Assembly: GCA_012401045.1 (NCBI GenBank)
Contig: GCA_012401045.1_4704.1
Reading direction: 5' to 3' (one strand)
Length of the DNA stretch: 64,000 nucleotides
DNA from: a phage
Position numbers and translations under genes: made by a program. Below are positions 1,675 through 56,158 of the stretch, one piece after another (position 1 is the stretch's first letter; each line of letters starts with the position of its first letter). Under the pieces are notes generated by a model, which was given only the letters and a program-made list of their open reading frames with translations, searched no databases and had not been told where the DNA came from.

Positions 1675-1743
1675 TTGGGATTCCTCTTTTCTTAAACTTT
1701 ATTAAATGACGTCATTGAATCAGCTTCTACTCGCTCATTCACC

Positions 1744-1774
1744 TAGGTAATATAACCCTGAAATTTTTTTCAAT
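1744..1774 (-). promoter_or_regulatory. Early-type promoter candidate (minus orientation: TATTG-AAAAAAA-N8-TATATTACCTA) for the 1-1674 gene
   Basis: Plus strand reads TAGGTAATATAACCCTGAAATTTTTTTCAAT; same motif recurs at 30707-30738, 53412-53443 and (variant) 16405-16434; TATATTAC matches the phiKZ early promoter consensus as I recall it. Confidence 0.55.
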
Positions 1775-9019: not shown

Positions 9020-9340
9020 TCATTTTCTCCCTCTTCGAATACTACCGATACCTCTTTCGTCTAAGACGTCCCAGGCACGCTTTATTTCATCCTCCGTTGC
9101 TCTGGTATCTGGAGGGACAACCATAACACAGTCGTGGAACGGCCAATGTGTAGGTCTGGGGTTAGCGAACAAATCATCCCATTCAAATGTCCATTCTTTC
9201 TTTGAGCGATTGTAGTAGAGTGTAAGGTACGTGTTGGTATACGCCGGATAACCGCGCATAACTTCAATATCCTTACGATCTTGCCGTTCCTGATTCCAAT
9301 CGTTAAACCGCTTTCTTATTTTCTCCCACCACTTTCCCAT
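9020..9340 (-). CDS. Hypothetical protein (106 aa)
   Basis: ORF; SD AGGAGAAAGC immediately upstream of ATG 9340, directly preceded by the TTTTATGCCGT motif. Confidence 0.6.
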   Translation of the reverse strand: MGKWWEKIRKRFNDWNQERQDRKDIEVMRGYPAYTNTYLTLYYNRSKKEWTFEWDDLFANPRPTHWPFHDCVMVVPPDTRATEDEIKRAWDVLDERGIGSIRRGRK

Positions 9341-9352
9341 GCTTTCTCCTAC

Positions 9353-9384
9353 ACGGCATAAAAGCCTGCCCCGAAGGACAGGCT
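9353..9384 (-). promoter_or_regulatory. Hairpin + TTTTATGCCGT late-type promoter/terminator candidate
   Basis: Plus strand ACGGCATAAAAG + agcctg/caggct stem; 12 nt upstream of gene start 9340. Confidence 0.5.
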
Positions 9385-9393
9385 CGATAGAAC

Positions 9394-9594
9394 TTAACGA
9401 CCATCCAATTTCAATGAAGGATGGTTGACGATATGTGCGTGTTTTGCTGGGTCATATAGCTGATATGGAAAATAGCCATGCCATTGACGGCCTTGGCATT
9501 TCGTACACAGGAACTGACCAACACCTTGTCGATTCTCGTAAGCGAGTTCGGTACTATCAACATGACCGCAACGTTCGCAGATAAACAGCGACAT
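9394..9594 (-). CDS. Small zinc-ribbon-like protein (66 aa)
   Basis: CERCGH ... CTKCQG paired Cys motifs; SD GGGGA upstream. Confidence 0.55.
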   Translation of the reverse strand: MSLFICERCGHVDSTELAYENRQGVGQFLCTKCQGRQWHGYFPYQLYDPAKHAHIVNHPSLKLDGR

Positions 9595-9631
9595 AGCGCA
9601 TCCCCATTCACTTGAACCTTTTGGTTCGGCA

Positions 9632-10612
9632 TTAGAAAAGCAAGAAACCGCTATTCTTCGCTTCCGCTACAGTTTCGTCACCAACTTTCGGTGCCTGTTG
9701 ACGCGCGTTACGATGTTCGATGTAACGTTTCGCTTCGTCAGCGATTTGTTTGATAATACCCCCTAAACGATCGGTACTTAAAACAAACGACGTCGCTTCA
9801 CGAATTGGGCTGCTTTCAGGCACAAAACCATCGCAGCTGTAAATAGCGCTAACGCCCATGACTTTTGTCGCGTCTTTCGGATAAAGCGTACAGAAAGCAA
9901 TCGGGCTATCGTTCTCTTTCGTCCAATCGTATCCCATGAACGTATTCAGTTCGGTGATCGTTGGTTCCAAACCGGTAACACGTGGATGGTTTAAGAAGTT
10001 TTCCAGGTCGGCGCTGTCAAGACGACGGTTCTCGCCAGAAAACAGAACACAAAGCTGGCTAATAACAACCTGCACGTCCAGGTTGACATCCTGCTCCGAT
10101 TTCCCATTTTCGCCATTCATGTGATAGCTAACAATCACTGGACGTTTCAACCCTTCTGCAGCCGCCATCAGTCCTTTGAAGGTGCGATCGGCGTTGATCG
10201 TTTGACGCTCATCATCGAACGAGGCAACGATGCAACACACCACACGTTCACCACGTTCCAGCAGGTTAGCAACCAACGCAGGACCTGCAACAGAACCTGA
10301 ACCACCGCTCAGACTAAAGACCACGATATTAAATTTACCTGGCGTATGCTTATTCAGAATACCCGGGATTTGTGAACAGATCAGTTCAGCGTTCTCATCA
10401 CGCTTCTTACCAGAACCGTCTAACTCACGACCGGCTGCATCTTTAAAGATGTAAATATGATCGTCACCCAGTGTGCTATCGCGTAGGTTAGCGCGGCTGG
10501 TATCGACATACGTCATGCTGTGTAATCCTTTCGCGACTTCGCCTTCAAATGCTGAGCCGATTTCGCCACCACAACCACCGACAGCCCAAATATGTACTTG
10601 GTTCTCTTGCAT
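9632..10612 (-). CDS. phuZ: Tubulin/FtsZ-like GTPase, PhuZ homolog (326 aa)
   Basis: N-terminal WAVGGCGGEIG (T1-like) and FNIVVFSLSGGSGSVAGP (tubulin signature loop), aligning by eye with my recollection of 201phi2-1 PhuZ (FYIVCYSLGGGSGSVLGP, QIP motif); SD AGGAG 7 nt upstream. Confidence 0.88.
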   Translation of the reverse strand: MQENQVHIWAVGGCGGEIGSAFEGEVAKGLHSMTYVDTSRANLRDSTLGDDHIYIFKDAAGRELDGSGKKRDENAELICSQIPGILNKHTPGKFNIVVFSLSGGSGSVAGPALVANLLERGERVVCCIVASFDDERQTINADRTFKGLMAAAEGLKRPVIVSYHMNGENGKSEQDVNLDVQVVISQLCVLFSGENRRLDSADLENFLNHPRVTGLEPTITELNTFMGYDWTKENDSPIAFCTLYPKDATKVMGVSAIYSCDGFVPESSPIREATSFVLSTDRLGGIIKQIADEAKRYIEHRNARQQAPKVGDETVAEAKNSGFLLF

Positions 10613-15244: not shown

Positions 15245-15828
15245 GGGACATAAACCTCCATCAACATCGCATAAAGCGCACCAAGCCCATGCAGGACTTG
15301 GTTAGGTGCAAAGGTCGGAGTGTAGCATACTTGTTCGGTTGGTGCTTGTTGACGTAAGTCTAACGGATCTCCGTTGATAAGCATCTGCAGGAGATCAGCA
15401 TCATCTTGCAATGTGTCTTCATCGATATACGCATCAACACAAAGCAGTCGGTGTAACTGTTCTGGTTTAATTGAAATACCTACAACCATGCAGTTGTTGT
15501 AGGTGGCGTTGTCCAGAAAGAAGTGAATGACGCCCGCTTGAGGATCGCCACCGTAGTGGAGCCAACGCGTAAAACCAGCCGACATCATCCATAGCGGGTT
15601 GTGTTGTAACGCACTGACGACGCGGGTCTCGAAATCCAAACCAAACTTCTGGAAGATTGCGCCCATCTGGAAACGATCTTCATCGAGACGGTAACGGAAT
15701 ATACAGGCATCCGATCCCGTTGAGTTATCATACACCGAAAGATACCCACGATGGATTTCCACGGTAACATTGTTGTCGTCAAGCGTGGCGCTCGCAACGC
15801 CGTTAGAAAAGGTTGGAACAAAGCTCAT
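15229..15828 (-). CDS. Hypothetical protein (199 aa)
   Basis: ORF; 16-nt overlap with downstream gene. Confidence 0.6.
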   Translation of the reverse strand: MSFVPTFSNGVASATLDDNNVTVEIHRGYLSVYDNSTGSDACIFRYRLDEDRFQMGAIFQKFGLDFETRVVSALQHNPLWMMSAGFTRWLHYGGDPQAGVIHFFLDNATYNNCMVVGISIKPEQLHRLLCVDAYIDEDTLQDDADLLQMLINGDPLDLRQQAPTEQVCYTPTFAPNQVLHGLGALYAMLMEVYVPCFKN

Positions 15829-16376
15829 CTTGTAATCCTTAATTTACCTGAATGAATTATCGTTGATGGGTCCACGACGCGACCGTATTTCGCGTTACGT
15901 AATACACGATGCCCAAAGAAGTCAGCGGTTTCCAAAACAACCGTGTAACAACCCAGCTGATGTTGATGTCCCCAAAACCGTTCAATGGGAATCCAGCAGG
16001 GCGACATGCCTTTGTGTCGCCAATCCGTAACACAGCCGAATTCAGCAAACTGTTCAGTAAACCACTCGTCAATGTCGGTATCCGTAAAGAGAAACACGTG
16101 GTTTTTAACCAGATAAGCGAACCCAGGATAAAAAAGCTGAGGGTCATCTGGGTCACGGAGATAAACACGAAGTTTGTCTAGCGTACCCTCGACAACGATT
16201 GTATCGGGTAATCCTGGCGGCGTGAACCGAAGTTGGAAGTTATCCTCGTTTGCCGAGGCGTTAACCAAATACCCCAGTTGAAGGGGTCGATGCAATTCGA
16301 AAAGGTTAAACGTTAATGCATATTCGATATACTCTAATCCTATATTCATGTCTGACCTATGTGGTATGGACGGCAT
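15825..16376 (-). CDS. Hypothetical protein (183 aa)
   Basis: SD GGAAGG 7 nt upstream of ATG 16376; early-type motif variant upstream. Confidence 0.65.
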   Translation of the reverse strand: MPSIPHRSDMNIGLEYIEYALTFNLFELHRPLQLGYLVNASANEDNFQLRFTPPGLPDTIVVEGTLDKLRVYLRDPDDPQLFYPGFAYLVKNHVFLFTDTDIDEWFTEQFAEFGCVTDWRHKGMSPCWIPIERFWGHQHQLGCYTVVLETADFFGHRVLRNAKYGRVVDPSTIIHSGKLRITR

Positions 16377-16404
16377 TGCATTGCCTTCCGCGAGTGTAAT
16401 CAGG

Positions 16405-16434
16405 AAGGTAATGTAGGTTTATTTTAATCTCCAT
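16405..16434 (-). promoter_or_regulatory. Early-type promoter variant (minus orientation AAAATAAACCTACATTACCTT)
   Basis: Plus strand AAGGTAATGTAGGTTTATTTTAATCTCCAT; TACATTAC variant of TATATTAC. Confidence 0.4.
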
Positions 16435-16487
16435 TTCGCGATGATATGACAGTCTTTATTACGTTTACCATCTGAGGGAGCATGCTC

Positions 16488-29051: not shown

Positions 29052-29591
29052 TTACTGTTTGTTCGTGGCTTCACGAATGAAAATGACATCAGGATATTCT
29101 TGAGATTCAATGAATTCAGGATTACGATAACGACGAATATGACGCATCGTTGTACAAGCAAGTTTGTAAAGATGTTCCTCCTCACGTTGTGTTAATAACA
29201 TCAGTTGCGCGTCTGGAATCACGAATGGGAGTCTTTCATTCACGTATTCCCGAAGGTCATCGAGATCATCGTGATGAATGCCCTCTGAGAGCTTATATAA
29301 CGCTTCCAGCAATTCTAATCCACCGAACTGGTAACTTCCTATTGTCGTCTTAAACAATGCGCCAGAACGCGTGGTGGATGCTCTATCGGCGACATCGTAT
29401 TGTTCTAACATATATCCGTAGACCATGCTACGTCGATCCAGTGTATCCGTAACGAGATTACGCCACCGTTCCAGTCTTTCGAGCGCTTTGTCGATAGAGT
29501 AAACGATCATGCCATGTTCATCCAACTCTTCCGCAATACCCAATAGTTCATTGTTGTTAGGTTTTGCTGCACCGATAAGAAAAACACTCAT
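29052..29591 (-). CDS. Hypothetical protein (179 aa)
   Basis: ATG overlaps upstream stop (TAATG). Confidence 0.6.
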   Translation of the reverse strand: MSVFLIGAAKPNNNELLGIAEELDEHGMIVYSIDKALERLERWRNLVTDTLDRRSMVYGYMLEQYDVADRASTTRSGALFKTTIGSYQFGGLELLEALYKLSEGIHHDDLDDLREYVNERLPFVIPDAQLMLLTQREEEHLYKLACTTMRHIRRYRNPEFIESQEYPDVIFIREATNKQ

Positions 29592-30004
29592 TACTCAAAC
29601 TCCTTATTCCAAAACTCGATTAATGAATCGAGCTGTTCCTTACTGGTTATCTCACCTCCCCTAACAAAATGAAATCGTTCTTGAATGGCGATCTTTTCAA
29701 GGATATCGGTAAGCAAATGACGGTGACAGAAATTTCCTGCAGGACAATAACACCCTAACACCACAACCGGATGGGAGAATAAAGCCAACCATTCCGGTGT
29801 ATGATCAACAAAGCTTTTGCGCATAAGCGCGTAGTAGCCTGTGGTATATTCATCCTCGGTTAACGTTTTTGATTTGATTCCTGTAACAAGTTCCCATGAA
29901 GGTGCGAAGAGTGGGTTACCTGTTTTCACCGTCGTGTCCAGTAGGAACGCTCGTGTGTCTGAAAGCCAACGATATTTGGCTAATTGAAGGGTGTATAAAA
30001 ACAC
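29591..30004 (-). CDS. Hypothetical protein (137 aa) with GCYCPAGNFCHRH motif
   Basis: GTG start (weak SD); Cys/His cluster suggests metal binding. Confidence 0.45.
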   Translation of the reverse strand: MFLYTLQLAKYRWLSDTRAFLLDTTVKTGNPLFAPSWELVTGIKSKTLTEDEYTTGYYALMRKSFVDHTPEWLALFSHPVVVLGCYCPAGNFCHRHLLTDILEKIAIQERFHFVRGGEITSKEQLDSLIEFWNKEFE

Positions 30005-30046
30005 AGCGCTAACCCCAAAGGATAAAAATAAAACCTTGACATAACC

Positions 30047-30080
30047 ACCACCGCAACCCCATACAGGGCTACGGTGGGGT
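30047..30080 (-). terminator. Terminator candidate after abundant early gene
   Basis: acccca/tggggt or ccaccg/cggtgg stem followed on minus strand by GTTTTATTTTTAT. Confidence 0.45.
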
Positions 30081-30107
30081 CATACAGAGAGACGTGTTAA
30101 GTTACAA

Positions 30108-30587
30108 TCAGTCTTTCAGCAGCTCAGCTGCATACGCACTGATGTTGTCGCGAATATGCTTAACCTGAGTTGTTGGGAAAGATTTCTTATACGCGGTGGT
30201 CAGGCGTCCGTAAACCTGTTTCTTCTCGTTAGAGCCGAAACCAACTTCAGCGCTACGTTGAACCGTTGCGGACACAACGTCTTTGCCCAGCGGCAGGGTT
30301 ACAGAAACAACGTCAACCTGCTTGTTATCCGCCATGAACTGCGCGCCAACGCGACCTACCGCCAGACCATGAGCCAGACCGATATCGGTGGTCAGTTTCT
30401 GTGCTTTTTCCAGGATTTCTTTTTCTTCCGGCGTTACCAGAGTACCCAGGAAATCACTGCCTAACTTCTGGCTACCAGATTCGTCCAGTTTAATACCAGC
30501 GGCGATTTTATCAGAAAGAGCCTGAACTTCCGGACGTACGTTAGAAGTGGTTTCAGTCGCTACGGTGGTTTCTACAGCTTCAGACAT
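30108..30587 (-). CDS. Abundant early protein of unknown function (159 aa)
   Basis: Strong codon optimisation; early-type promoter motif 120 nt upstream; terminator downstream. Confidence 0.75.
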   Translation of the reverse strand: MSEAVETTVATETTSNVRPEVQALSDKIAAGIKLDESGSQKLGSDFLGTLVTPEEKEILEKAQKLTTDIGLAHGLAVGRVGAQFMADNKQVDVVSVTLPLGKDVVSATVQRSAEVGFGSNEKKQVYGRLTTAYKKSFPTTQVKHIRDNISAYAAELLKD

Positions 30588-30706
30588 GTTAATACTCCAA
30601 TTAGTTTTTTCGATCGATCAAAAGGATAAAATCAGAAGATTCTTTCTTCATAGGGAAAACACAAGTCGGTTAAGGTTTACTTCTTAAACTCCTTGCGTTC
30701 TATCAG

Positions 30707-30738
30707 TTAGGTAATATAGACCTCAACTTTTTTCCAAT
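30707..30738 (-). promoter_or_regulatory. Early-type promoter candidate (minus orientation ATTGGAAAAAAGTTGAGGTCTATATTACCTAA)
   Basis: Only a minus-strand gene lies downstream, which fixes motif orientation; overlaps the stop codon of the upstream gene. Confidence 0.55.
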
Positions 30739-35995: not shown

Positions 35996-38900
35996 TTATT
36001 TAGCGTCGTTAAAGTAAATATCAACAGCTCGTTCCGTTGCGTAGAGGAGACCAAGATTCACAGTCCCAACCACTTCCGGTGAACCGATGATACGGTTAGC
36101 GATACTGGTGCCACTGAAGATAGCATCAAGGGTGTGCCCGTCTTCGGTTTTGTTCACACCATGACCCACGGAAGAGACAACGGATTTCGCTTGAGCTGCG
36201 AAGGTACCTTTATCGCCCATCCCCGCACCAAGGTCGTAACGCATGAAAATACGGATTGCGATCTGGTTCTCGCCTAACGGATTACCGTCTATTCTCACGT
36301 TACTGTTATTGATACGCCCCGTAGCTGCTTCGTTGAGTTTCAGTTCCTTAACGCGTTTAGCTCGCGCTTTATCTGCATCACCGACGAGCGCCGCCATGGT
36401 TTCACTCATATCCTCAATCTGAGCGCGGTACAACACATCGATCTGTACAACTTCACCATGAACGTCAGCACGTGGGTTATACTGACTCATACGACGTAAT
36501 GCTTCAACGGCTTCCTGACTCTCATCACTCAGATCGGTCGCAATCGGTTCTTCCAGTGTTGCAAGGATCGTTCGTGGTTCAACATGATCGCCGATTTTCA
36601 CGAGACCACGAATGTTGAGATGGGCGTCAACGATGAGCGTACGGCTCTTAATCGATGGTGTTACGAGACGATCGGCAAGATTGTCGAAGATATACGAACT
36701 GTCCTCGTGAGTCTCTGGAATATCCAGAATACCGACAAGAGACAGAACACCTGCGCGCCAAACAACCTGACCTGGGTTCCACCAATCGCGTTTAAAATAA
36801 AGACGATGGAAGACCACCACATCCTGATCCTTAACGCGATCCCCGACTTTATAATCGGTAATAAGATCGTGAGGATAATACTTACCTGGTCCTTTCCCGA
36901 TTATCGTGCCGAGTTGGAAAACCTCTTCTCCTAACTCTGGATCGTCGTATTGTATCGTAAGCGCAGTTTTGGTGACCTTCTTAACAACACCATCGCCTTG
37001 GGCAGCTGCTGCGAAGAGCTTACCAACACGATGCGCGATAACGGTCTCACCGCCGGTGCGCCACGGTTGTACATCGTAACCCTCAGCGGCAATCATGCGG
37101 TTGTGTTGGATCCCGACGAAGACCAGACGTTTTCCATCATCACGGTCTACGGCTGGAACAGCTAACGCCGACGTACTCATTACCGATGAGATACCGTCTG
37201 TCTTTTCATCGAATGGTCGTGTTTCACCATACACCGACACGATATTAGCATTAGGTGCAAGGTAAGCTGAGATACCCACATCCCCACTATCTTTCGTACC
37301 CTCTGACACAATACCAACATCGGACTTGTCGTATTCACGATCACGTGCGCGTCGAAGCGATGTCTTTGAACGACCCCCGATACCGGTCATCGTTGCTTCT
37401 TCACCCTGCTTGATATCCAGCATCGGGTTGGTTTCATCGATCACGATGGACGCGCTGTCGTCGAGAATTTGGTTCCAGACGCTTACCGGACTGATTGAGA
37501 TTTTCTGGCGATTTCCTTGACTGCTGTTCTCATTCTGACGAATAGCGCCAACCAGATCCTTATACACCAATTCAGCGAACTTATCGTACGTTTTAAAACG
37601 TTGGTAGTTCACATCGTTGGTGTTAGGTGCCCAGTCATCCAGAAGCAGTTCAACAGCACGCAGTAACAACATGGCGAAATCGGTAGGTTCTCCCATGTTC
37701 TGTAGCAACGTACGGCTTACCGGATCAACGAAAAGACGCTCCATGAGTTCAAGTTCGCGTAAATGGCGAACCTTAAGTCCAGCACCATCAACAACGTTAA
37801 AATAGATATCTCGATTGTCGAAAGCACCGCGAGCGTAACCGATGTAGTTACGGTATTCGTTAAACCCACCCAGCAACAACGTCGTCATGCGATCGTCTTT
37901 ACTGAAGATCAAACTTTCGTCATCAAAGCTCACCGCGAATTCATCGGGTGCTAATCCCATACGAGAACCGCGAGGTACCGTACGATAGTTCGCTTTAAGA
38001 TGTTCTAATAACGGGGTAAGTCCACCCAGATAACTTAGAACGACACCAACCGGAATACGTACACCCATGAATTCAAGATCGGCGGCTTCGATCGGCATCT
38101 TAGCCGCATTGATACCGAAGAAATCAGGGAACGTCCCTACAGGTGTTGGTGTTTGTCCTGACTGACAGATATAGAGCTGATTGCGTTTATCGATTGCTAA
38201 GAATTCACCCAGCGTGTTACGCGCAAACGTCAGGAGCCCTTCGGCTAACTGTTCGTTGAACCGATCTTCCCCGATGAACTCCGGCAATGTCTTTGTATCG
38301 AGACGTATATCCCAATCAGCAAATTGGATTTGGGTATAGTTGCGTGCAAGCACAGCGAAGTAATACGGGACTTTGACGGCCGGATCAAAGACGTTACCAC
38401 GTTTTAACGTGGTTAAGGGTGAGGACTTATCGTAATACATCGCTGTAAGTTGGCGTGTTAACCAACGACCGGCGTTATTAACGACACGCTCTGAACGTTT
38501 AACAAACACCTTACCGTAGGCGGTACTCAACGCAACTTCGGATGATGATACCTTTCTAATAGGTTTATCAACACGTTGTTTACGCATCCGGTATTTGATG
38601 CCGTTAACGACATAAATGCCGTCCTTACGAACCTTCGGCAACATCACCGGGAACGTGGTTGGGACACCGCCTACAGGGGCCAGTTTAATCGTGATAACTT
38701 GATAATCCCCCATCACGTCAACAACATCTTCAACTTTATATCCCGTGACAGGGTAACCTGCCTGTTGTACGGCAACAACAGCGGCTGCGATGTCCTTTTG
38801 CATCACGTGTTCAACGTAATGTTTATCCCACACCGCAAGCGTCGATTTACATAGGCTCTTATCGACGATAACATCCGCTTCCGGCATAACCTTTGCTGGC

Positions 38901-40342
38901 GCTAATTTCGCGGCTTTTGGTTTAACTTCAACATACTCAGCAAGTGTTAATCCAGAACCGTCGGGTGCTTCGATTTCATGGATGGCGTCGGCATTACGCA
39001 TCGCTGCTTTATATTGGACACCGCTTAACTGACCCGCATCCGCCAGATCGCTCGCGCGCACCAACACCGCATCCGATAACGACTGAATATATTCACCGTG
39101 TGTTTTTGGTAACGTTGCCGCGTCAAAGACATCAACCTTTTCTTCTTCGGTATCGTCGGTAACGACCTCGAAGAGATCGTCGGTAATGTCCTGATCTTCA
39201 TCGGGTTGGAAATCCGGCTGTACTTCTACCCCGGGTACTTCACGGACATCTTCGAACGAGCGTTCTACAATGGCGTTCCACGCATCAGCGTCATCGTCTT
39301 CATCCGACCCACCAACCAACTCCGCTTCTAACTCATCGGGATCAAGAACAGTGGCCAGATCCTCACCGTTAGGAAGCACGACGTCGCGATCATCGTACTC
39401 TGCATCCGGGCTGTCCGCAAGAATATCTCGCTCTTGACGAAGAACCTGTTCCTCTTCTTGTTTCTGTTCTTCTTCATTCGCGCTCTGCGACCATAGACGT
39501 GTTACCGCCATCATCCAACGACGCTGGAAGGTTTCGAGTGTCGTTTTATCGAGTTCTTCCCCTTCCTTTACAAGCCCGGTACGCCATTCTTCCAACAGGC
39601 CGAGATTCAGCGTAAAGAAGTACACGCCGTCTGTAAATACAACGTTAAGCTTATCCAGCGTGGCTCTGTCTAACGAAGCCATCGTGCTGTTCTCACGATC
39701 GGTTCCCAGCCAGCGGAAGAAGTCAAAGAACGACAGCTCCTCCGGCGTAGCGAAATTCATGAGGTTGTTACGGGTCGGTGCCTGTTGCGTGGTACGCATC
39801 AACGAAATCTTCGGCAATGTTGACGGTATACGGAACAACAGAAAGTGTTGGCGATCGCTTTGCTGCGCGATTTCGTTGGCTTTCGACCAAATTGTTTTAC
39901 GTACGTTGAACCATTCATCATACCAACGGGTGAGCGTTGGACGATAGATGTACATGTGGTTAAGATGTGCGTAGTTAGCAACGATCTGAGCGTTGATGTT
40001 TTTCTCCACCGTACTTAGATCGGTAACCAAACGAAAACGACGATGTGACGCACGATAATCCAATTTCGCTCGTGGGAGCTGGAATCGCTGATCACGTCGA
40101 GGTGCACCCTGTTTGGTTGCGAGATCATCAGCAAACGAAATCCATAGTTGAGCACTTTCTTTACTCAACATGTATTCGTTTTCTGGAGGACCTATCAATG
40201 AAGGATCCGTTGCGGTGTAATGATAGACAGCATAACGTGGCAGCTGCAATAGCTGCACTAAACGTAATCTCGGTGACAATAGCTCTTGGTAGCGTCTGAC
40301 GCCAAACTGTCGGTAGTAATCAAGGTATTTAAGTTTTGCCAT
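35996..40342 (-). CDS. Multisubunit RNA polymerase beta-like subunit (1448 aa)
   Basis: IVSVYGETRPFDEKTDGISSVMSTSALAVP (cf. E. coli beta [32 protein letters not shown]), GMGDKGTFA and EDGHTLDAIFSGTSIANRIIG (cf. beta RHGNKGV / DIVLNPLGVPSRMNIGQ), E. coli comparisons from memory. Confidence 0.65.
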   Translation of the reverse strand: MAKLKYLDYYRQFGVRRYQELLSPRLRLVQLLQLPRYAVYHYTATDPSLIGPPENEYMLSKESAQLWISFADDLATKQGAPRRDQRFQLPRAKLDYRASHRRFRLVTDLSTVEKNINAQIVANYAHLNHMYIYRPTLTRWYDEWFNVRKTIWSKANEIAQQSDRQHFLLFRIPSTLPKISLMRTTQQAPTRNNLMNFATPEELSFFDFFRWLGTDRENSTMASLDRATLDKLNVVFTDGVYFFTLNLGLLEEWRTGLVKEGEELDKTTLETFQRRWMMAVTRLWSQSANEEEQKQEEEQVLRQERDILADSPDAEYDDRDVVLPNGEDLATVLDPDELEAELVGGSDEDDDADAWNAIVERSFEDVREVPGVEVQPDFQPDEDQDITDDLFEVVTDDTEEEKVDVFDAATLPKTHGEYIQSLSDAVLVRASDLADAGQLSGVQYKAAMRNADAIHEIEAPDGSGLTLAEYVEVKPKAAKLAPAKVMPEADVIVDKSLCKSTLAVWDKHYVEHVMQKDIAAAVVAVQQAGYPVTGYKVEDVVDVMGDYQVITIKLAPVGGVPTTFPVMLPKVRKDGIYVVNGIKYRMRKQRVDKPIRKVSSSEVALSTAYGKVFVKRSERVVNNAGRWLTRQLTAMYYDKSSPLTTLKRGNVFDPAVKVPYYFAVLARNYTQIQFADWDIRLDTKTLPEFIGEDRFNEQLAEGLLTFARNTLGEFLAIDKRNQLYICQSGQTPTPVGTFPDFFGINAAKMPIEAADLEFMGVRIPVGVVLSYLGGLTPLLEHLKANYRTVPRGSRMGLAPDEFAVSFDDESLIFSKDDRMTTLLLGGFNEYRNYIGYARGAFDNRDIYFNVVDGAGLKVRHLRELELMERLFVDPVSRTLLQNMGEPTDFAMLLLRAVELLLDDWAPNTNDVNYQRFKTYDKFAELVYKDLVGAIRQNENSSQGNRQKISISPVSVWNQILDDSASIVIDETNPMLDIKQGEEATMTGIGGRSKTSLRRARDREYDKSDVGIVSEGTKDSGDVGISAYLAPNANIVSVYGETRPFDEKTDGISSVMSTSALAVPAVDRDDGKRLVFVGIQHNRMIAAEGYDVQPWRTGGETVIAHRVGKLFAAAAQGDGVVKKVTKTALTIQYDDPELGEEVFQLGTIIGKGPGKYYPHDLITDYKVGDRVKDQDVVVFHRLYFKRDWWNPGQVVWRAGVLSLVGILDIPETHEDSSYIFDNLADRLVTPSIKSRTLIVDAHLNIRGLVKIGDHVEPRTILATLEEPIATDLSDESQEAVEALRRMSQYNPRADVHGEVVQIDVLYRAQIEDMSETMAALVGDADKARAKRVKELKLNEAATGRINNSNVRIDGNPLGENQIAIRIFMRYDLGAGMGDKGTFAAQAKSVVSSVGHGVNKTEDGHTLDAIFSGTSIANRIIGSPEVVGTVNLGLLYATERAVDIYFNDAK

Positions 40343-40345
40343 GGG

Positions 40346-41992
40346 TTAGGCTCCACGAGGTCCCGTTAAGTTGCGTAATAGGAACGCAACCGTATCGTAA
40401 CCAATATCGATGTTGAATTTATTTTTACCACTTACCCAGAAAGCTCGCTTCTTGTGCGAGTTGGTAATTTCGTCAATAGCTTCCATGGAATAAAGAACGT
40501 TAACCGAGACCGTATCACCATCAAAGTCCCCACCAAGTCCGGCGAGGTATGGCGCAGGGACAATAGTCGTTTCTACGAACGAAGCATTAGGTAACCAGTC
40601 GGGGTATTCCCATGCGATAAATCGTTCATCCGTTATTGGTTCCCAGTTACTATCCAGTTCGGTTTTCGGTTTTGCGGCGACGGTTGTACGTGCGTAACAG
40701 GTTAACGGGATAACGGATTGCATACCTGATACCGGATAACGTGTTACCATCGCAGCCAGGTTATTCCAGTACTTATATCCGGCAATATAGATAAGCTCGG
40801 TGTAAGTAATGGGGTGAACATCCGCGCCAGGTTTATTCAACATCTCCGGGGGTAATTCACTCATGCCACGGAATAACCGAAACGAATCGTTGTTCACATA
40901 GACGAGGCAAAGATATCGTCCATTGACCATGATAGGCTCGTTACGCACGCCAGGATCGCTTAAGGTGTTCAGTAAACGTTCTATTCCGTCCCATGTTGTA
41001 AAGTCATCGATGGTGTCTGGATCAAGCGTGACGCGCTCACGTTCCATCGTTTCGGTATCAGTAAGTTCAACTTCTGTAACATCACGGACAAATATTTCCT
41101 GCAAAATACCGGTACGTAACGCATGTTGCGTTACTGGGAGAGCGGCTTTACTCATCTGGTATAACCCTAACTGAACCGCGGTACAGGAAGGCTGGTTAGG
41201 CGACCCTAATACCTCCGTTGTGGGGTTAATTGCCGAAATAACGTTACGGGTTGAGTTCCAAACGCGACGTGAACCAAACTTACCTTGGAAGATCCCTTTC
41301 TTACCCTGGAACATATCCAACAGTAAAGCGTAGATATCGTTGAATGTTCTCTGTAAGCTCCAGCGCTGGCCGTCGTAAACGGGATCGGAATAATCTTTTA
41401 ATCCATCAGGGACGGTGTTAGAAATTGCAAGGAAACGACGATACAACTCCGTGATTTCTTGCTCGCTTTCATACCCACCTTCTTTTACTTCTATTTCACG
41501 TAAGCCTGCAGGCAATACCAGTAAGTGACGGGTCATCGCTTTGAACATGTTCTCTTCGACAACTTTAATTCGTAGCTCTCGTTGAGCTGAACCCGTTGAA
41601 ACGAACTTGATATCCGCGACGTGTTGTGCAAAGAACCCGTATCCTGTTTGTCCTGTTAATGCATCAGACGCAACGAAGTCGCGTTGTTCGGGATCCCACC
41701 GAGCGTACGCCTTCCCCGACATGATATCGCCATAGAGGTGTTTTAATCGAATGAGACGGTCGTAAATGACAGGATGCAGGATTTCAACCTTGCATTCAAT
41801 CACCGCAAATCGACGGTCTCGATCTTCACTACCCGCACTACCAAAGATGGTGTAAGAATAGAAACCATCATCGTGGAAATTACCGGTGCTTGGGTCACGA
41901 ATGCTCATGCTCGTGATCTTGGGGAGAAAACGTAACTGCTGTTTATCGAGGTGTAAAATACTAATATTAAACGGCTCTCTGACTTTAGCCAT
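40346..41992 (-). CDS. Multisubunit RNA polymerase beta-prime N-terminal-half homolog (about 548 aa)
   Basis: C-terminal GGDFDGDTVSVNV (beta-prime NADFDGD catalytic motif), GKKGIFQGKFGSRRVWNSTRNVISAINP (cf. LLGKRVDYSGRSVIVVGP), RRFAVIECKVEILHPVIY; start ATG 41992 with SD AAGAGGAG. Confidence 0.8.
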   Translation of the reverse strand: MAKVREPFNISILHLDKQQLRFLPKITSMSIRDPSTGNFHDDGFYSYTIFGSAGSEDRDRRFAVIECKVEILHPVIYDRLIRLKHLYGDIMSGKAYARWDPEQRDFVASDALTGQTGYGFFAQHVADIKFVSTGSAQRELRIKVVEENMFKAMTRHLLVLPAGLREIEVKEGGYESEQEITELYRRFLAISNTVPDGLKDYSDPVYDGQRWSLQRTFNDIYALLLDMFQGKKGIFQGKFGSRRVWNSTRNVISAINPTTEVLGSPNQPSCTAVQLGLYQMSKAALPVTQHALRTGILQEIFVRDVTEVELTDTETMERERVTLDPDTIDDFTTWDGIERLLNTLSDPGVRNEPIMVNGRYLCLVYVNNDSFRLFRGMSELPPEMLNKPGADVHPITYTELIYIAGYKYWNNLAAMVTRYPVSGMQSVIPLTCYARTTVAAKPKTELDSNWEPITDERFIAWEYPDWLPNASFVETTIVPAPYLAGLGGDFDGDTVSVNVLYSMEAIDEITNSHKKRAFWVSGKNKFNIDIGYDTVAFLLRNLTGPRGA

Positions 41993-42237
41993 GGAGACAC
42001 TCCTCTTTACCACCACCGGCTGCGGCGGTATCATCTGAACACACGAGAGACGTAATGGGTGATGGCGTCACCCATCGCTTCCTTGCTTGAGGCGAGGAAG
42101 TTATTAGGTTACGTACCTGCCTGATTTTATCAGGTGGGCGATGTGTGAAGTTACGCTTCAACATTATCAATGCCGAAGGTAAACTTCGTGCATCACGTTC
42201 CAACGTAACATGGGAACGTATCGAACTGGAGGTATAC

Positions 42238-45200: not shown

Positions 45201-48200
45201 AAAACGCGGTGCGGTTGAGATCTACAAACAGCTTGACAAAACACCCGACGTTTACGTCAAGGGAGAATCAACGCCTCGTCTGTTGTCCATGGTGTTAGCA
45301 GCGGGTGGGTATTTCCGTCGCTCGGATGGACAAGTCATCAAAAATCTTGAAGACATCGATGGTGATGTTGTTGATGCACAAGGTAACGTCGTACTTACGC
45401 TTGCCGACATGCAGAAAGGACTTGTCGATAAATACGGTAAAGCGATTCGTCGTTTAAAAGAAAAGCTCATCAACTTCGGTGTAAAAGCTTTTACGTTACC
45501 GTTAACGTTGCTACGTAAGACAAAGGACATCCTTAAAGCCCTTCCAGGTAAAACCGTTAACGGTCTACGGCGGATGGGATTAAATTTCCAATCACCTGAC
45601 GCGTTACTGGTGGGAACAACGTCGAGCATGGTAGATCGCCTCGATGCTATTTACCAGCTTCTTGACCAGCGTATGCCGGGAGGTGATAAGGATTACCGCG
45701 ATTGGAATGGCGATGGTGTTCGAGAAGGATCGTTGGAAGACCTGAAACGTAAGCGTGAAGCCAAGGAAAACGGTAAGGATGACATCGGCAAAGATTCCAA
45801 TAAAGGAGAAGAAAAGGAGAAGAAACGAGGGTTACTCGGAAGCCTTTTCGATATGCTCGGTGATACCGCAATAGGTAAACGTCTCATGGCGAGTCCGCTT
45901 GGAAAAATTCTGGGTGGTCTTGGGGCGGTGTTAAGCGGCGGTGCGTCGTTAACTGGGTTGTTGGGCAAAGGTCTCATTAGAGGAACCGGCGCGCTGGTCA
46001 AGGGAGGACTAAGTGCGGCAGGATGGTTAGGACGTGGTGCGTTAATGGCGGGTGGGGCCGCGTTGAACGCCGTTGGTGGGTTATCGGGATTAGGTGCATT
46101 CCTCATCTCACCTGTTGGGCTTGCTATCGCTGGCGGTGCGTTGGCTGCTTATGCTGGATGGAAGATCTATCAGCATTTCGCCGAGAAGCCTGACCCGATG
46201 CAGAAGCTCCGTCTTATTGCATACGGTGCAAAAGGGGACGATAAAGACTTCAATAAGAAGCTGCTTGCGACAGAAACATACCTCACCGACCATGTGGTTA
46301 TGACCGGGGATACCATCGGATTCGATCCGAAAGCCGACTCGGAAAAGATTCTCGAAATCTGGGAATTGTCTCTGGAAGATTCCGACCGAATGAACGAATG
46401 GAAACGCTGGTATCTGCATCGTTTTATTCCTGTTTTCGCTCGCGCGTACAAACTCTGGAAAGAGCATATGCCGGACGAGAAGAAATACATGGAAATGGAT
46501 AAATATCCGAACGGTGAGAACAAAGTGAAATGGTCGGAAGCGTTTATCTGGCCTTCCGATAGTCCTGATGGTCCGTATTACGTCGAAGCTAACCCGTTGG
46601 GTTCTTCTGGTGCGACGCGTTATATTGCTGGTCAAGACGTCAAAACCTTGATGCTGAAACAACTCGAAGCCATCAAGAAAGAGTACCAGAATCAGATTAA
46701 GCAATACACTCATGATGAGGCTATTGCTGATTGGTCACGGATGTCTGACACACAACGTAAATCCGTTGCGCCTAACGCATTACGTGGTCAGAAAGCGTCA
46801 TTACGTTTTAACGATAAACGTTACAACAGCGCTGGTGCTAAAGGACGACAGAAACTGGATGCAACCGCGGTTATTGAAAGCGTAGACCGCCGTGGTAGGA
46901 AATGGGTTGCCGGTGGATACATCGATGAACTCACCAGTCTTCGTGTTCGTGCGTACGGTATTAAGGTTCCGTTGTTAAGTCAGATAAAAGTGCTGATGGA
47001 ACTTGAAGACGCTGTAGAACCTGGCGTTGTCGCTGAAGGTAAAGGTGTTAAATACGGTGGCGATCTTGTCGCGCTCTACAAGAAATTCGCGACGAAGTTC
47101 GGAAGAGACGTTAACAGCAAGCATGATCAGGATATCTGGTTTGCTTGGATGAACAACCGTTTCCTGCCCGTCTTTTTAACCTATTACCAACAAGTTAGCG
47201 ACATGGGCGGTCAAGGACTTCTGTCCGACGTGGTACAGAACCTGAAAGACAGCCAACGCTGGGAAATCGGTGAAGCACTTGTCGCAACGCAATACCGTGA
47301 TGAGAAAGGTACACTGCAGCCTGTATGGTCCTGGAATAGTTGTGGTTTCTCCGGTACTGAAGCTAACACCACCAGCAGTTCAACAAAGAGCCAACTCGAT
47401 CTGTTAAAAGAATATGCGGATAAAGAGAAGGTTCGTGAGAAGAACGCGGAAGCATCGCAAGAGGATACCGATAAATTATCGAAGATCCAAGAGCTGATGA
47501 TGAAGCAGGCTGGGTACGAGAAGAAAGACGGTGTCTGGCAGAAGAAATCTCGCATTACCGGCGGGATGAGTAACTCCGAAGCGAATTACAACCCCAATAG
47601 GAATAAGGTCGGTGAAAGCAGCTTTACGGCTTCGGCTACTTCCAATGCGGGATTAGGGTCAACCGGCGATCTTACCGGATTGCCTAACATGGGCTTACAG
47701 AAACCTGCAATGGGACCAGGTCCTGAAGCTGGACGTCGTGCGCTTGTTAAATCCGCTGTAAAACGCGGCATTACCGATCCGATGGAAATGGCGATGTTCC
47801 TTGCGAACATCGAACATGAATCGGGGAACTACACTCACGTACGTGAGGGGAACTATAAGACACCAGAGCGTCTTAAACAGGTCTTCCCTTACAAATTCCG
47901 TGATGTGCAGGATGCCGCACAGACGATCAGCATGGGTCCGGAAGTGGTATTCGAACGTGTGTATGGTAATCGTAAAGATCTCGGAAACACACAGAAAGGA
48001 GACGGGGCGAAGTATTTAGGACGTGGCTTCATTCAGGTTACCGGTAAAGCTAACTACGCTCGTCTGTCCAAGACCTTGAATAAGGATCTTGTCAGCGATC
48101 CGACCTACCTGGAAACGCCGGAAGGTGCAGCGGAAGGTAGTGTCGCATGGTGGCTCAACCGAGGTAACGTATTACGCGATCCCGCAAAACGGGGTGACGT

Positions 48201-48952: not shown

Positions 48953-51094
48953 ATGGGTATTCTTGTTCAAAACGCCCTAATCACCAAACAAGCGTTTTTA
49001 TTACCAGGCGATAGCAGCACTCTGAGCGCCGACATGATTAAAGCGAGACATACACCGTATTCCTACGATAACGTCGATGATACCACCTTAGGTGGGAACT
49101 GGGTGCTTAACCCGCCGCCGCAATATACAAAATTTGCCGACATCAAAGAACGCCGACGTGCGGTTATGCCGGGATCAACGGGCATGGGTCGAGGCTATAG
49201 TGAAAGCATTAACAGCTTTAAAGAGGTCGTTACATTACGATTCGGTAAACCTCGCTTTACAGGCGCAAGTATCTTCTTTACTGATTTCTACGATGCGGAT
49301 GTTGCCGTAACGGTTAAAACCGGTCGCGATCCCGGTATTCTTTATTACGCAGCCAAAGCGTATACCACCGTTCTTTCTTACCTCACACCTCTACCCTACT
49401 TGTATATGGTTGGACGTATCGGTCGATATTTCCTGGGTAAGCCTACCAGTCAATATTACTATCAAGTACCAACCATGCACGTGTATTGGGCGTCTTTCCA
49501 AACACTGGTAAACCAAACAGCGATAAACATGGGTCTTATCGCCGGTGCCGGTAAAGATAAAGGCTATGTGGAAGAAGGGGGTACCGTACTCCACCAATAT
49601 TCAATCGGTGGTCAGAACGTTGAAGAATTCATCAACTACGCCTCTAAGACGCTACCGGGGATTTATAAGAAAGGTGGTGGGATCGATATCTACCAGATCG
49701 CAACACGACGTCAGCGCATACAGAACGCATGGGTACGTCGTATTCAATCCATGATGGAAAACGATTACTCGTCTTACGAGGAGTTCTGGAACGATCTTGA
49801 TAAACGACTTGATAGCGGAGCATTTCCATCGGATGTAACCGGCCGTACGTTAACGCAGTATCTCGCCGACACGCAGAAGTCTGCTGTTTACAGTGCGACA
49901 GCTGGTGATAATAAACAAACGATGGACGACCTTTTATTCGGAAGGGCCTCATACACCAACAAGGACGCTGATGCCAACTTCAATGTCTCTGCAGTCACCT
50001 CCGACGGCGGTACGTCAACACAAAGTCAGGGTACAACAGCCAATGTCGGTAATTCGACATCAGGGACAACGCAAGCTTCAACAGCAGCATCGACGGCTGG
50101 AGGTGCGAACGTACAGAGCAAAGGAATCGGGCAAACGAACGCAGCCGAAGAAGCTACATTTCTTGATCTGATGGATGCTGAACTGGCTGACGGTGCCCAG
50201 TTTATCAGTTTTCGAGTCGATTCTGTCACCAGTGTAACCGAAACGTTTTCAAACAGCGCTTCAGAAAGTTCTATTGCACAGACGATGAATAGCCGTGCAC
50301 AAGCGAACATCGAACGTCGTTTCACCCTTTCCGGTGGTAATACAGGTTGGGCTGTACTAGACGAAGCAATCAAAGCCGGTTCCGATCTCGTCAACGGTGC
50401 TATTTCCGGGATGGGTCTGGATGGTATTTTTGGGGCCTTCATGGGTTCCGGCTTCGCTGACATTCCGAAATTCTATTCTGGATCGTCAGTAAGTCTACCG
50501 CGCGCCGATCTGACGATGGAATTGCGTTCCTGGAGTGGGGATCGTTGGTCGATCTTTACGAACCTCATGGTGCCTCTTTTAGCTATCCTTGCAGGTGGTT
50601 TACCTCAGGCTACCGGTAAATCGTCCTACGGGATGCCGTTCATGTGTGAATGTTATATCCCTGGTAAAGTCCAGATTAAAATGGGTCTTATCGACAACAT
50701 CACTGTGACGCGTCACGTTGGAAACGTGCCATCAACACGTGAGCGGTTACCGTTGGGTATCGATGTCAGCTTCAGCGTTTATGACCTGTCGTCCATCGTC
50801 GCCATGCCGATCACAACGACGGCCGCATCGATCGCAAAATTGGATCCTCGTGGCTTCTTAAGTGATCTTCTTGCTGACGATACCCCACTCAACAACTATC
50901 TTGCTGTATTATCAGCATTGACGCTTACGGAACAAGTTTACATGATTCCTGATTTAAGTCGTCGCATGCATAAAACCATGGCTGATATCGATAGTTTCTG
51001 GAGCAAAGGTAATTTTGCTAGCTGGTTGTCTGACACCATGCCTGGCAGGATAGCATCAGGGCTGTTATGGAAACGTACAGAACGTCCGTTCTGA
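48953..51094 (+). CDS. Putative virion structural protein (713 aa) with Ser/Thr/Gly-rich low-complexity region
   Basis: SD GAGGAA; immediately downstream of giant virion protein. Confidence 0.7.
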   Translation: MGILVQNALITKQAFLLPGDSSTLSADMIKARHTPYSYDNVDDTTLGGNWVLNPPPQYTKFADIKERRRAVMPGSTGMGRGYSESINSFKEVVTLRFGKPRFTGASIFFTDFYDADVAVTVKTGRDPGILYYAAKAYTTVLSYLTPLPYLYMVGRIGRYFLGKPTSQYYYQVPTMHVYWASFQTLVNQTAINMGLIAGAGKDKGYVEEGGTVLHQYSIGGQNVEEFINYASKTLPGIYKKGGGIDIYQIATRRQRIQNAWVRRIQSMMENDYSSYEEFWNDLDKRLDSGAFPSDVTGRTLTQYLADTQKSAVYSATAGDNKQTMDDLLFGRASYTNKDADANFNVSAVTSDGGTSTQSQGTTANVGNSTSGTTQASTAASTAGGANVQSKGIGQTNAAEEATFLDLMDAELADGAQFISFRVDSVTSVTETFSNSASESSIAQTMNSRAQANIERRFTLSGGNTGWAVLDEAIKAGSDLVNGAISGMGLDGIFGAFMGSGFADIPKFYSGSSVSLPRADLTMELRSWSGDRWSIFTNLMVPLLAILAGGLPQATGKSSYGMPFMCECYIPGKVQIKMGLIDNITVTRHVGNVPSTRERLPLGIDVSFSVYDLSSIVAMPITTTAASIAKLDPRGFLSDLLADDTPLNNYLAVLSALTLTEQVYMIPDLSRRMHKTMADIDSFWSKGNFASWLSDTMPGRIASGLLWKRTERPF

Positions 51095-52298: not shown

Positions 52299-52811
52299 TT
52301 AAACTTCTTCGTTTTCTGAACCTAATGATTCAGCATCTGGATCGTCAACAGGAATGGTTGCATCAAAATACCGTTTCGTATGCGTGGTTGTATATCCTAC
52401 GCTATCTGTGATGGAAATCGTAAACGTGACTTCCCTTGCACGGATTAAGCGTAGTTTATTCATGAAGTTACGGAACGGCATCGATCCCCGATTCAACTCC
52501 TTAATGACGTTTCCCCGAATACTGGAAATGTCTTTATTCGTTTTATCAGGGTGTCGTTTCTTCACATCACGCATATGTCGGGTAATATACGAATTGAGCT
52601 GATTTGCGCCGATCCCTCTCTCCGTATAAATCTGCAACAGGAACTCCGTAAGGAAATCCTGTCTACCCGTAGGCGTCCAGAAATTGTTACCGTGATTGTA
52701 GTTAGTCGCTCGTCCTCGATTGCTTTGAGGATTTTCATCATCGCTTTCATCACGACGCTTAAGCGGATTAATGCGTGCGCGGAAAGAGACTTCATTATAT
52801 TTATTTGTCAT
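52299..52811 (-). CDS. Hypothetical basic protein (about 170 aa)
   Basis: ATG overlapping upstream stop (ATGA coupling). Confidence 0.55.
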   Translation of the reverse strand: MTNKYNEVSFRARINPLKRRDESDDENPQSNRGRATNYNHGNNFWTPTGRQDFLTEFLLQIYTERGIGANQLNSYITRHMRDVKKRHPDKTNKDISSIRGNVIKELNRGSMPFRNFMNKLRLIRAREVTFTISITDSVGYTTTHTKRYFDATIPVDDPDAESLGSENEEV

Positions 52812-53323
52812 AATACACCAGTGTACTGACTGAGTGCGAAGGTTAGGAGTTCGCAACAGTCTCTCGCTAGTTTCCTTGTTTTGCGTAATCCATAAGCCGC
52901 ATCCAAATCGTCACGTTCCGCCAGCGCGTCTAACCACGTCGCAAGTATGCGTCCATACTCGATAACGTCACGCATGAGAACGTCGAACCGGATAACACGA
53001 CCATCGGCATCAGCAAGCCAACGATTGAACGTGATTTGTGGTGCTAGTATTGCATATGTTCTCTCCTCTAATGCGATTATGTTTATGTTGCCTTCGTTAT
53101 CGAACGCTTGATGCCAACGGCGAAGGTCAAGCATCAACGACTCAGCGTCCATATACCACAACGGTAAATACGTTTTACGTGCAACGCGTATATCGTAGAT
53201 GTTGTGAACCCAGGACGTTGTTTTGTAAAGCAACAAGAGTTCGTTTAACCGTTGCCTATCATCTTGAAACGTCTTCCTTTTATAACGTTGGAACGCACGC
53301 CTCAAGAAAAAGCGATGTAACAT
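52808..53323 (-). CDS. Hypothetical early protein (171 aa)
   Basis: SD AGGTGA; early-type promoter motif about 95 nt upstream. Confidence 0.6.
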   Translation of the reverse strand: MLHRFFLRRAFQRYKRKTFQDDRQRLNELLLLYKTTSWVHNIYDIRVARKTYLPLWYMDAESLMLDLRRWHQAFDNEGNINIIALEERTYAILAPQITFNRWLADADGRVIRFDVLMRDVIEYGRILATWLDALAERDDLDAAYGLRKTRKLARDCCELLTFALSQYTGVL

Positions 53324-53411
53324 GGCATCACCTATGTATCATTCTTGCAGGCATCAATGAAGCCATCACAAGAAGGTAACGTTATACGTCGCCTTCATGA
53401 CTGTCATCATG

Positions 53412-53443
53412 AAGGTAATATAGTCCTGTTATTTTTTTCAATA
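53412..53443 (-). promoter_or_regulatory. Early-type promoter candidate (minus orientation ATTGAAAAAAATAACAGGACTATATTACCTT)
   Basis: Third copy of A-tract + TATATTACCT motif; divergent region. Confidence 0.5.
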
Positions 53444-55483: not shown

Positions 55484-56158
55484 TTAGCCCTCATCAAGGT
55501 TATTCTGGAGATGCATCGCGGTGAGGATAACGCCAACCGCCGAAACCGATTTTGCCTTGCTGTCTTCAGGGAGCTGCTCCAAGCTTACGGTACCTGTTTC
55601 TAACAGCATGCGGTTCATTGCGTTGAACTTCTTATCGTCACCACCACGAGCCTGCATCAGCTCTCGGTTCACGTTCGGCATCGACCGTCCTAACGTCGCT
55701 TGCATTTCCGGCTGGCTCCAAGTGGAACCTTTACTATCACCCGTCGGCTGATTGGTGAGCTGGTCCTTGGTGTTGTTGTTTTTCGGAATCGAAATTTTAG
55801 CACTCAACGTTTCGGCTTGTCGGCGGTTTGGAATCAGGTACAATCTGGTTGGGCGGTCACGAAGCACCAATTGCCCTGTTTTCTGGTCGGTGAGATAAAT
55901 GCGTTGGAAGAAAGGGAAACCGTATTTCTTACCGACTTCCAACGCACGTTTTATCGTCACCTCGTTTTTGTTCATGTTGGGTACCCAGATGGGTAGAATC
56001 TCTTTCTTATCCCGACATAAACGCATATAGGCATCAAACGTCTCATCATCGATTTCAGCAAAACGTTTTTTGTAAATAGCGTAAGTCGGGCTCGATTCAC
56101 CCACCAGGTCTTTGATATACCCAAGAATGAATTTTTCTGCTGCAGCGCGGTTGGACAT
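55484..56158 (-). CDS. Hypothetical protein (224 aa)
   Basis: ORF. Confidence 0.6.
   Translation of the reverse strand: MSNRAAAEKFILGYIKDLVGESSPTYAIYKKRFAEIDDETFDAYMRLCRDKKEILPIWVPNMNKNEVTIKRALEVGKKYGFPFFQRIYLTDQKTGQLVLRDRPTRLYLIPNRRQAETLSAKISIPKNNNTKDQLTNQPTGDSKGSTWSQPEMQATLGRSMPNVNRELMQARGGDDKKFNAMNRMLLETGTVSLEQLPEDSKAKSVSAVGVILTAMHLQNNLDEG

Follow-up and report, generated by a model that had tools for sequence, protein, structure and literature searches.

In phiKZ, the virion RNA polymerase reads 28–32 early promoters, which combine an extended −10 with a T-rich element further upstream (Ceyssens 2014, as relayed in PMC8244752 and PMC7598289), and PHIKZ054 has a primary transcription start bearing the early motif (PMC8244752). 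This early motif was described as computationally findable in every jumbo phage encoding these polymerases (PMC7598289). For AR9, the early consensus is TATATTAT-(6N)-G or AAATATATATTAT-(6N)-G, where G is the mapped start; these promoters are served by a virion-packaged multisubunit polymerase and need no new protein synthesis (PMC5312081). Long-read mapping in 201phi2-1 detected six early promoters, which sit before small hypothetical genes (PMC11512511). In Escherichia phage vB_EcoM_Goslar, Armbruster and colleagues blocked translation of chimallin, the nuclear shell protein, upon which the genome remained confined to the early infection vesicle, along with the virion polymerase (bioRxiv 10.1101/2023.09.20.558163). 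The word ‘promoter’ is absent from that study, and our literature search returned no catalogue of Goslar promoters.

We analyzed a 64,000-nt stretch of a phage contig (GCA_012401045.1_4704.1), referred to here as the window. It aligned over its full length to Goslar positions 171225–211747 and 213799–237273 with ~97.4% identity, and for its first 6 kb and a 4-kb middle piece the sole match in the phage collection was Goslar (98.2%). Judged by this identity over the whole window, the phage is a distinct strain of Goslar, a nucleus-forming jumbo phage (Chimalliviridae) with E. coli as host. The window begins inside the chimallin gene. Two more Goslar-like genomes were present in IMG/VR (IMGVR_UViG_3300011560_000001, 237.5 kb; IMGVR_UViG_3300045988_173921, 182.9 kb), both with chimallins 97.8–98.0% identical to that of the window.

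Homologues of Goslar gp207, gp205 and gp196 are encoded in the window (Table 1). We infer that the first two are subunits of the virion polymerase; in the published Goslar RNA-seq their genes are late (log2FC of −3.8 and −4.4 upon ChmA knockdown). For gp196, a fusion to sfGFP was used to mark the virion polymerase in Goslar infections (bioRxiv 10.1101/2023.09.20.558163). The polymerase subunits matched PHROGs, with no match in a Pfam search, and an Rfam scan of the window at gathering thresholds recovered no family. A 2,051-bp Goslar segment (211748–213798), comprising a group I intron and the HNH/NUMOD endonuclease gene gp206, interrupts a polymerase gene in Goslar and is absent from the window (40343–40530). 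The window polymerase gene (40346–42034) is therefore one uninterrupted 562-codon open reading frame (ORF), an intron-less allele.

A preliminary description of this DNA had reported a recurrent motif upstream of four minus-strand genes. Inspection of the sequence located all four sites, each on the minus strand, and we numbered them 1 (chimallin), 2 (gp214), 3 (gp200) and 4 (gp225, a variant). The string AGGTAATATA is exact at 1745–1754, 30709–30718 and 53413–53422, with a one-mismatch version, AGGTAATGTA (TACATTACCT on the minus strand), at 16406–16415. Two details of the earlier account needed correction. The T-run, placed 8 nt from the shared string and given as seven T residues, is present, but the gap from AGGTAATATA measures 9 nt and the run is T6–T7. 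Similarly, the A-tract attributed to all four sites occurs at three of them and is missing from the variant at 16405. At 30707, only a minus-strand gene lies downstream, as originally stated and as both the ORFs and the Goslar annotation confirm.

The bare 8-mer TATATTAC was not significant in the window (five matches versus 2.2 expected; at least five in 8 of 100 shuffles) and, since it is not enriched alone, was dropped as evidence. Composite patterns behaved differently: A5-N10-TATATTACC gave three exact matches and five with at most two mismatches, against 0.68 expected and with at least five in none of 100 shuffles, while GAAAAAA-N10-TATATTACCT gave two exact matches against 0.00 expected. 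With a position matrix, the three strong sites scored 43.9–46.3 and the variant 31.4, compared to 8.6 for the next best position in the window. Two of the five exact TATATTAC matches, on the minus strand at 51414–51421 and 52582–52589, are inside the coding sequences of gp202 and gp201. These copies lack every flanking motif position and fall short of the matrix threshold; a search with the 8-mer alone would include them in error. Between the window and Goslar, the four sites show 0 mismatches over 144 positions, which is not significant against the 2.5 expected (P = 0.08). Sites 1 and 3 are also exactly conserved in both IMG/VR genomes.

Table 1 Features of the window, all on the minus strand, with predicted starts on that strand and log2FC values of Goslar genes upon ChmA knockdown
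Feature	Coordinates	Strand	Evidence and details	Upstream log2FC	Downstream log2FC
Chimallin (nuclear shell) gene, 5′ part, first 558 codons	1..1674	-	98.9% amino acid identity to Goslar gp246		
Predicted leader of chimallin mRNA, 66 nt	1675..1740	-	5′-terminal stem-loop; perfect palindrome AATGACGTCATT at 1705–1716		
Site 1, predicted early promoter of chimallin	1739..1774	-	Core TATATTAC 1754–1747; A7 1770–1764; matrix 43.9; predicted start G at 1740	gp245 −0.72, gp244 −1.09	chimallin gp246 +0.95
gp225 homologue, first gene of the block behind site 4	15825..16376	-	ORF, Goslar annotation		
Site 4, predicted variant early promoter, weaker	16400..16435	-	Core TACATTAC 16415–16408; without A-tract; matrix 31.4; predicted start 16401	gp224 −5.47, gp223 −4.39	gp225 +1.12
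Early island gp214-gp215-gp216	29052..30587	-	Inside late structural region; phrog_9746 and DUF488-N3a matches		
Site 2, predicted early promoter of gp214	30703..30738	-	Core 30718–30711; A6 30733–30728; matrix 45.3; predicted start 30704; 117-nt leader	gp213 −3.26	gp214 +1.04
Two RNA polymerase beta-like subunit genes (Goslar gp207 and gp205 homologues)	35996..42034	-	PHROGs ‘RNA polymerase beta subunit’, E = 0 and 4e-179		
Early island gp200-gp201	52299..53323	-	ORFs, Goslar annotation; gp200 = 52808–53323		
Site 3, predicted early promoter of gp200	53407..53442	-	Core 53422–53415; A7 53438–53432; matrix 46.3; predicted start 53408; 85-nt leader	gp199 −3.36	gp200 +0.49
gp196 homologue, virion RNA polymerase subunit	55484..56158	-	PHROGs E = 1e-65		

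For a genome-wide view, the Goslar genome (237 kb) was assembled from six pieces and the position matrix was iterated over it until convergence. This yielded 14 sites, all on the minus strand and all pointing at the next gene, with scores of 31–51 bits versus 10.2 for the next best position. In leave-one-out scoring, sites reached at least 18.5 and non-sites at most 12.1; the variant promoter at 16400..16435 scored 18.5 against 9.8 for the best non-site. The motif spans ~36 nt with the consensus tAaT.cAaaa.aTTTCACG.C-TAYATTAC-YTa.gT-G-A. With numbering from the initial T of the core (position 0), A−20, A−15, core positions 0, 1, 3, 4, 6 and 7, T+9 and G+14 are invariant in the 14 sites. Conservation upstream of the core concerns the two A residues, which are separated by an A/T-rich stretch, and TTTCACG from −9 to −3. 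The core reads TATATTAC in 8 of the 14 sites and TACATTAC in the other six, among them the window variant.

Thirteen of the 14 cores are intergenic, falling within the 5.6% of the sequence that has no annotation (P ~7e-16). The 14th core lies inside a 62-codon ORF, Goslar gp047 (49584–49772; promoter at 49725), whose start codon is upstream of the predicted transcription start; gp047 is probably not a real gene or has a misplaced start. An A6–A7 tract occurs at four sites, those of chimallin, gp214, gp200 and Goslar gp040. As a recurrent feature, the A-tract therefore marks a sub-class (4 of 14 Goslar sites) but is not conserved across the family.

Two upstream sub-classes of early promoter can be seen both in Goslar and in phiKZ (phiKZ positions cited for this comparison: 23585, 29398 and 45568). 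The A-tract class (GAAAAAAnTTnnAG), comprising sites 1, 2 and 3 and Goslar 43259, is found before chimallin and before small early islands in late or structural regions, and might be a hallmark of early genes with late surroundings. Several long early operons begin with the other class, which reads AATCCAACATTTTTCACGGC in Goslar and ATTCAAACATATTTAAACAG in phiKZ. A tblastn search with 18 Goslar or window early proteins found no homologues in phiKZ 1–50 kb, and the idea that A-tract-class promoters drive orthologous genes was kept for chimallin only.

The phiKZ early consensus given in the preliminary description proved correct. In the first 50 kb of phiKZ, TATATTAC occurs seven times; each copy is intergenic, lies on the strand that is transcribed and immediately precedes a gene, one of these genes being chimallin (gp54). 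A matrix built from these seven phiKZ sites only, scanned over both strands of the 237-kb Goslar genome, gave Goslar sites the top six ranks, of which window sites 1, 2 and 3 hold the first, third and fifth; the variant window site (16400..16435) was missed by this small, seven-site matrix. Conversely, the best phiKZ hit of the Goslar matrix was the gp54 promoter. An ungapped alignment of the two chimallin promoters, from phiKZ and from the window, shows identity at 31 of 39 positions (taatGAAAAAAATTTgAGattTATATTACtaaatTGAAT versus tattGAAAAAAATTTcAGggtTATATTACctaggTGAAT), and in both phages the predicted start lies 66 nt before the ATG. The corresponding proteins share 23.6% identity over half their length. 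Among 12 phages examined, with the window and phiKZ counted, eight carry TATATTAC-N5-TG upstream of chimallin: the window, phiKZ, Psa21, RAY, pEa_SNUABM_48, Proteus phage 10, RSL2 and Eowyn.

Goslar and the window thus share with phiKZ an identical core TATATTAC, an A/T-rich upstream element and T-G 5–6 nt past the core. In both systems, the sites are intergenic and co-oriented with the downstream gene, chimallin is among the genes driven and two upstream sub-classes exist. Unlike phiKZ, Goslar accepts TACATTAC as core (6 of 14 sites) and has TTTCACG at −9 to −3 where phiKZ has TTTAAAC or TTAAGAT. Fourteen strong sites were found in Goslar versus ~30 in phiKZ, predicted Goslar leaders are longer (25–205 nt versus a reported phiKZ mode of 31–40 nt) and the host is E. 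coli. AR9 resembles Goslar in its AT-rich core, which is nearly the same and is likewise trailed by six bases and a start G (predicted in Goslar), as well as in the use, likely in Goslar, of a virion-packaged polymerase, but differs in a core ending in T rather than C, a uracil-containing genome, the lack of a nucleus and a different upstream element. Compared by description, 201phi2-1 is also similar, with an AT-rich motif ~10 bp upstream of the start and conserved −10, −20 and −30 regions (PMC11512511).

To relate the sites to expression, we used per-gene counts, possibly not strand-specific, from Supplementary Table 2 of the ChmA knockdown study, which concern Goslar and not the window strain (bioRxiv 10.1101/2023.09.20.558163). 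The knockdown splits Goslar genes in two, with log2FC of either ~−3 to −8 or ~−1.3 to +1.4, and late genes drop 8- to 250-fold. The retained blocks are gp004-001, gp021-014, gp040-037, gp047-044, gp075-070, gp159-094, gp214-216 and gp200-201, along with one long block running from gp225 through chimallin to gp162. At each of the ten late-to-early boundaries, the gap immediately preceding the early block contains a site (chance ~5e-15 for random placement over ~250 gaps). The remaining four of the 14 sites lie within early blocks, mostly at upward signal steps, and the first gene past each of the 14 sites has a log2FC of +0.5 to +1.3. Together with the result of the phiKZ-derived matrix, these edges of early blocks in Goslar support the earlier interpretation of the motif as a phiKZ-type early promoter.

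The steps at the four window sites are listed in Table 1. Behind site 2, log2FC values are +1.04, +0.02 and −0.47 for gp214, gp215 and gp216, with flanks at −3.3 and −5.4. Behind site 3, gp201 is at +0.59 and gp202, beyond the island, at −3.55. The variant site heads the early block gp225 to gp243, whose first gene found no match in family searches. Local rises without a matrix site upstream were noted for gp236 (window 9020–9400) and Goslar gp183 (+1.09 each), so the 14-site catalogue may be incomplete. A search for a missed promoter upstream of gp236 (window 9320–9660) recovered only a terminator-like hairpin (GCCTGTCCTTCGGGGCAGGC followed by a T-run), situated directly before the gp236 ribosome-binding site.

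Both genes singled out in the preliminary description for strong codon bias, gp214 (30108–30587) and chimallin (1–1674), indeed rank first and second among 48 window genes, with Fop of 0.76 and 0.73, respectively, based on a list of E. coli optimal codons, and Nc of 35.6 and 34.7. The gp214 product has 159 amino acids and belongs to phrog_9746; besides the top codon bias of the window, its gene has a strong predicted early promoter of its own, the upstream half of which overlaps the last codons of gp213. More than 200 copies of gp214 are reported per Goslar virion (bioRxiv 10.64898/2026.04.21.720040), which makes it a product of early expression that is packaged as well. Next in the island, gp215 (29591–30004) matched Pfam DUF488-N3a (E = 1.7e-9) and phrog_2450.

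At a probability of about 0.9, we interpret the four sites as early promoters of a Goslar-like chimallivirus recognized by the injected virion RNA polymerase, whose binding, like the exact start, we infer. A multisubunit virion RNA polymerase would be injected with the DNA into the early infection vesicle and would there recognize an asymmetric element of ~36 bp, consisting of an A/T-rich upstream part (A−20, A−15), the sequence TTTCACG, intact or in degenerate form, and a TAYATTAC core that would occupy roughly −14 to −7 relative to the start. RNA synthesis would begin at the invariant G six bases past the core and run along the minus strand, giving rise to chimallin, gp214-216, gp200-201 and the gp225-to-gp243 block.

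The predicted start follows from applying the AR9 geometry, which puts it 6 nt past the core, on a G present in every one of the 14 Goslar sites; the consensus around it is T-G-A. For Goslar chmA, the sole published remark on the start is ambiguous and shows a ‘TSS sequence’ whose first nucleotide is 91 nt upstream of the ATG, a position that would be upstream of the core and not at the predicted −66. In five of the 14 early transcripts predicted for Goslar, the RNA opens with a stem-loop whose first base is the predicted +1 or adjoins it (GATAACAG-N6-CTGTTATC in one case). The corresponding rate was 13% for genomic controls (P = 0.03) and 7.6% for shuffled sequences (P = 0.003). Examples are located at window 53393–53412, Goslar 49697–49718 and 36668–36691 of Goslar piece L004. 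Such stem-loops could possibly protect the 5′ end of early transcripts.

Other readings of the sites have to account for the same observations. Host σ70 promoters are conceivable from the core itself, in which TATATT, one position off TATAAT, would act as the −10 and the A-tract as an UP element, with E. coli RNA polymerase making the first transcripts. A-tracts upstream of promoters can serve as UP elements. Sites 1 and 3 additionally have TTGAAA upstream of the core, but it is just 13 nt from TATATT, compared to the 16–18 nt of a −35/−10 pair; a σ70 scan of the four sites returned no acceptable pair on the minus strand. Neither the invariant C at core position 8 nor T+9, G+14, A−15 and A−20 are σ70 features, and the element is common to phages of Pseudomonas, Erwinia, Ralstonia, Proteus and Klebsiella. 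The genes in question are, moreover, transcribed from vesicle-enclosed DNA alongside the virion polymerase (bioRxiv 10.1101/2023.09.20.558163), and infection by the phiKZ group is rifampicin-insensitive (PMC13282480). We consider host transcription highly unlikely.

Use by the non-virion phage polymerase, as middle or late promoters or as promoters shared by both phage polymerases, seems very unlikely as well. It would fit phiKZ gp54, which has an early and a middle start (PMC8244752), and the finding that chmA and gp214 are still among the most abundant transcripts at 30 min; the subunits of this polymerase are themselves early products and would be made in the knockdown. However, the genes downstream of the sites keep their full level without a nucleus while the late class collapses, and the non-virion polymerase is reported to localize to the nucleus, from which the virion polymerase is reported to be excluded. 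The motif also fits the phiKZ early class, with neither the middle signature (TACT at −22) nor the late signature (TATG at the start) among its conserved positions. That the sites are not promoters at all, but bind a phage DNA-binding protein or are repeats left between genes by recombination, is extremely improbable: such a reading leaves unexplained the transcript-level step exactly at each site, the homology to mapped phiKZ and AR9 promoters and the promoter-like combination of motif asymmetry with strict co-orientation to the downstream gene, even though intergenic position and repetition would suit any cis element.

The chimallin leader holds a further feature. A perfect palindrome of 12–14 nt is located 37–55 nt before the chimallin ATG in 8 of 13 chimalliviruses, phiKZ (45594–45623) among them. 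Within the 1,430 nt examined upstream of chimallin in the 13 phages, nine perfect palindromes of at least 12 nt were counted, when the remainder of these loci would predict 0.53 (P ~6e-9). They represent six different sequences, all with a self-complementary center. Because symmetry is retained while the sequence varies between lineages, the palindrome could be an operator, so far undescribed, that is bound by a dimeric protein, or else an RNA element under conservation. In Goslar, the sole other exact copy of AATGACGTCATT is at 142859–142870, ~60 nt upstream of the gp159 early promoter in the divergent gap with gp160; the location of both copies beside early promoters hints at a shared binding factor. 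The leader is ~56–66 nt long in six of eight lineages. Tentatively, and with more doubt than confidence, we raise the idea that the chimallin promoter belongs to a conserved promoter-plus-leader module of A-tract promoter, ~56–66-nt leader and palindrome that regulates synthesis of the shell protein. A literature search found no report of a chimallin-leader palindrome, and a conserved perfect palindrome in the chimallin mRNA leader may thus be new.

Overall, the motif is a known kind of signal extended to one more genus and leaves the accepted picture unchanged, a result that is useful rather than surprising. Goslar serves as the E. coli model in work on nucleus-forming phages and on the early infection vesicle, and a defined list of its early promoters enables reporter or expression cassettes that fire from the vesicle, aids the design of knockdown guides against leaders and helps to separate transcription by the injected polymerase from that by the nuclear one. 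The near-identity of chimallin promoters, despite ~24% identity between the proteins they precede, indicates that the virion polymerase's promoter specificity is one of the best-conserved traits of this family.
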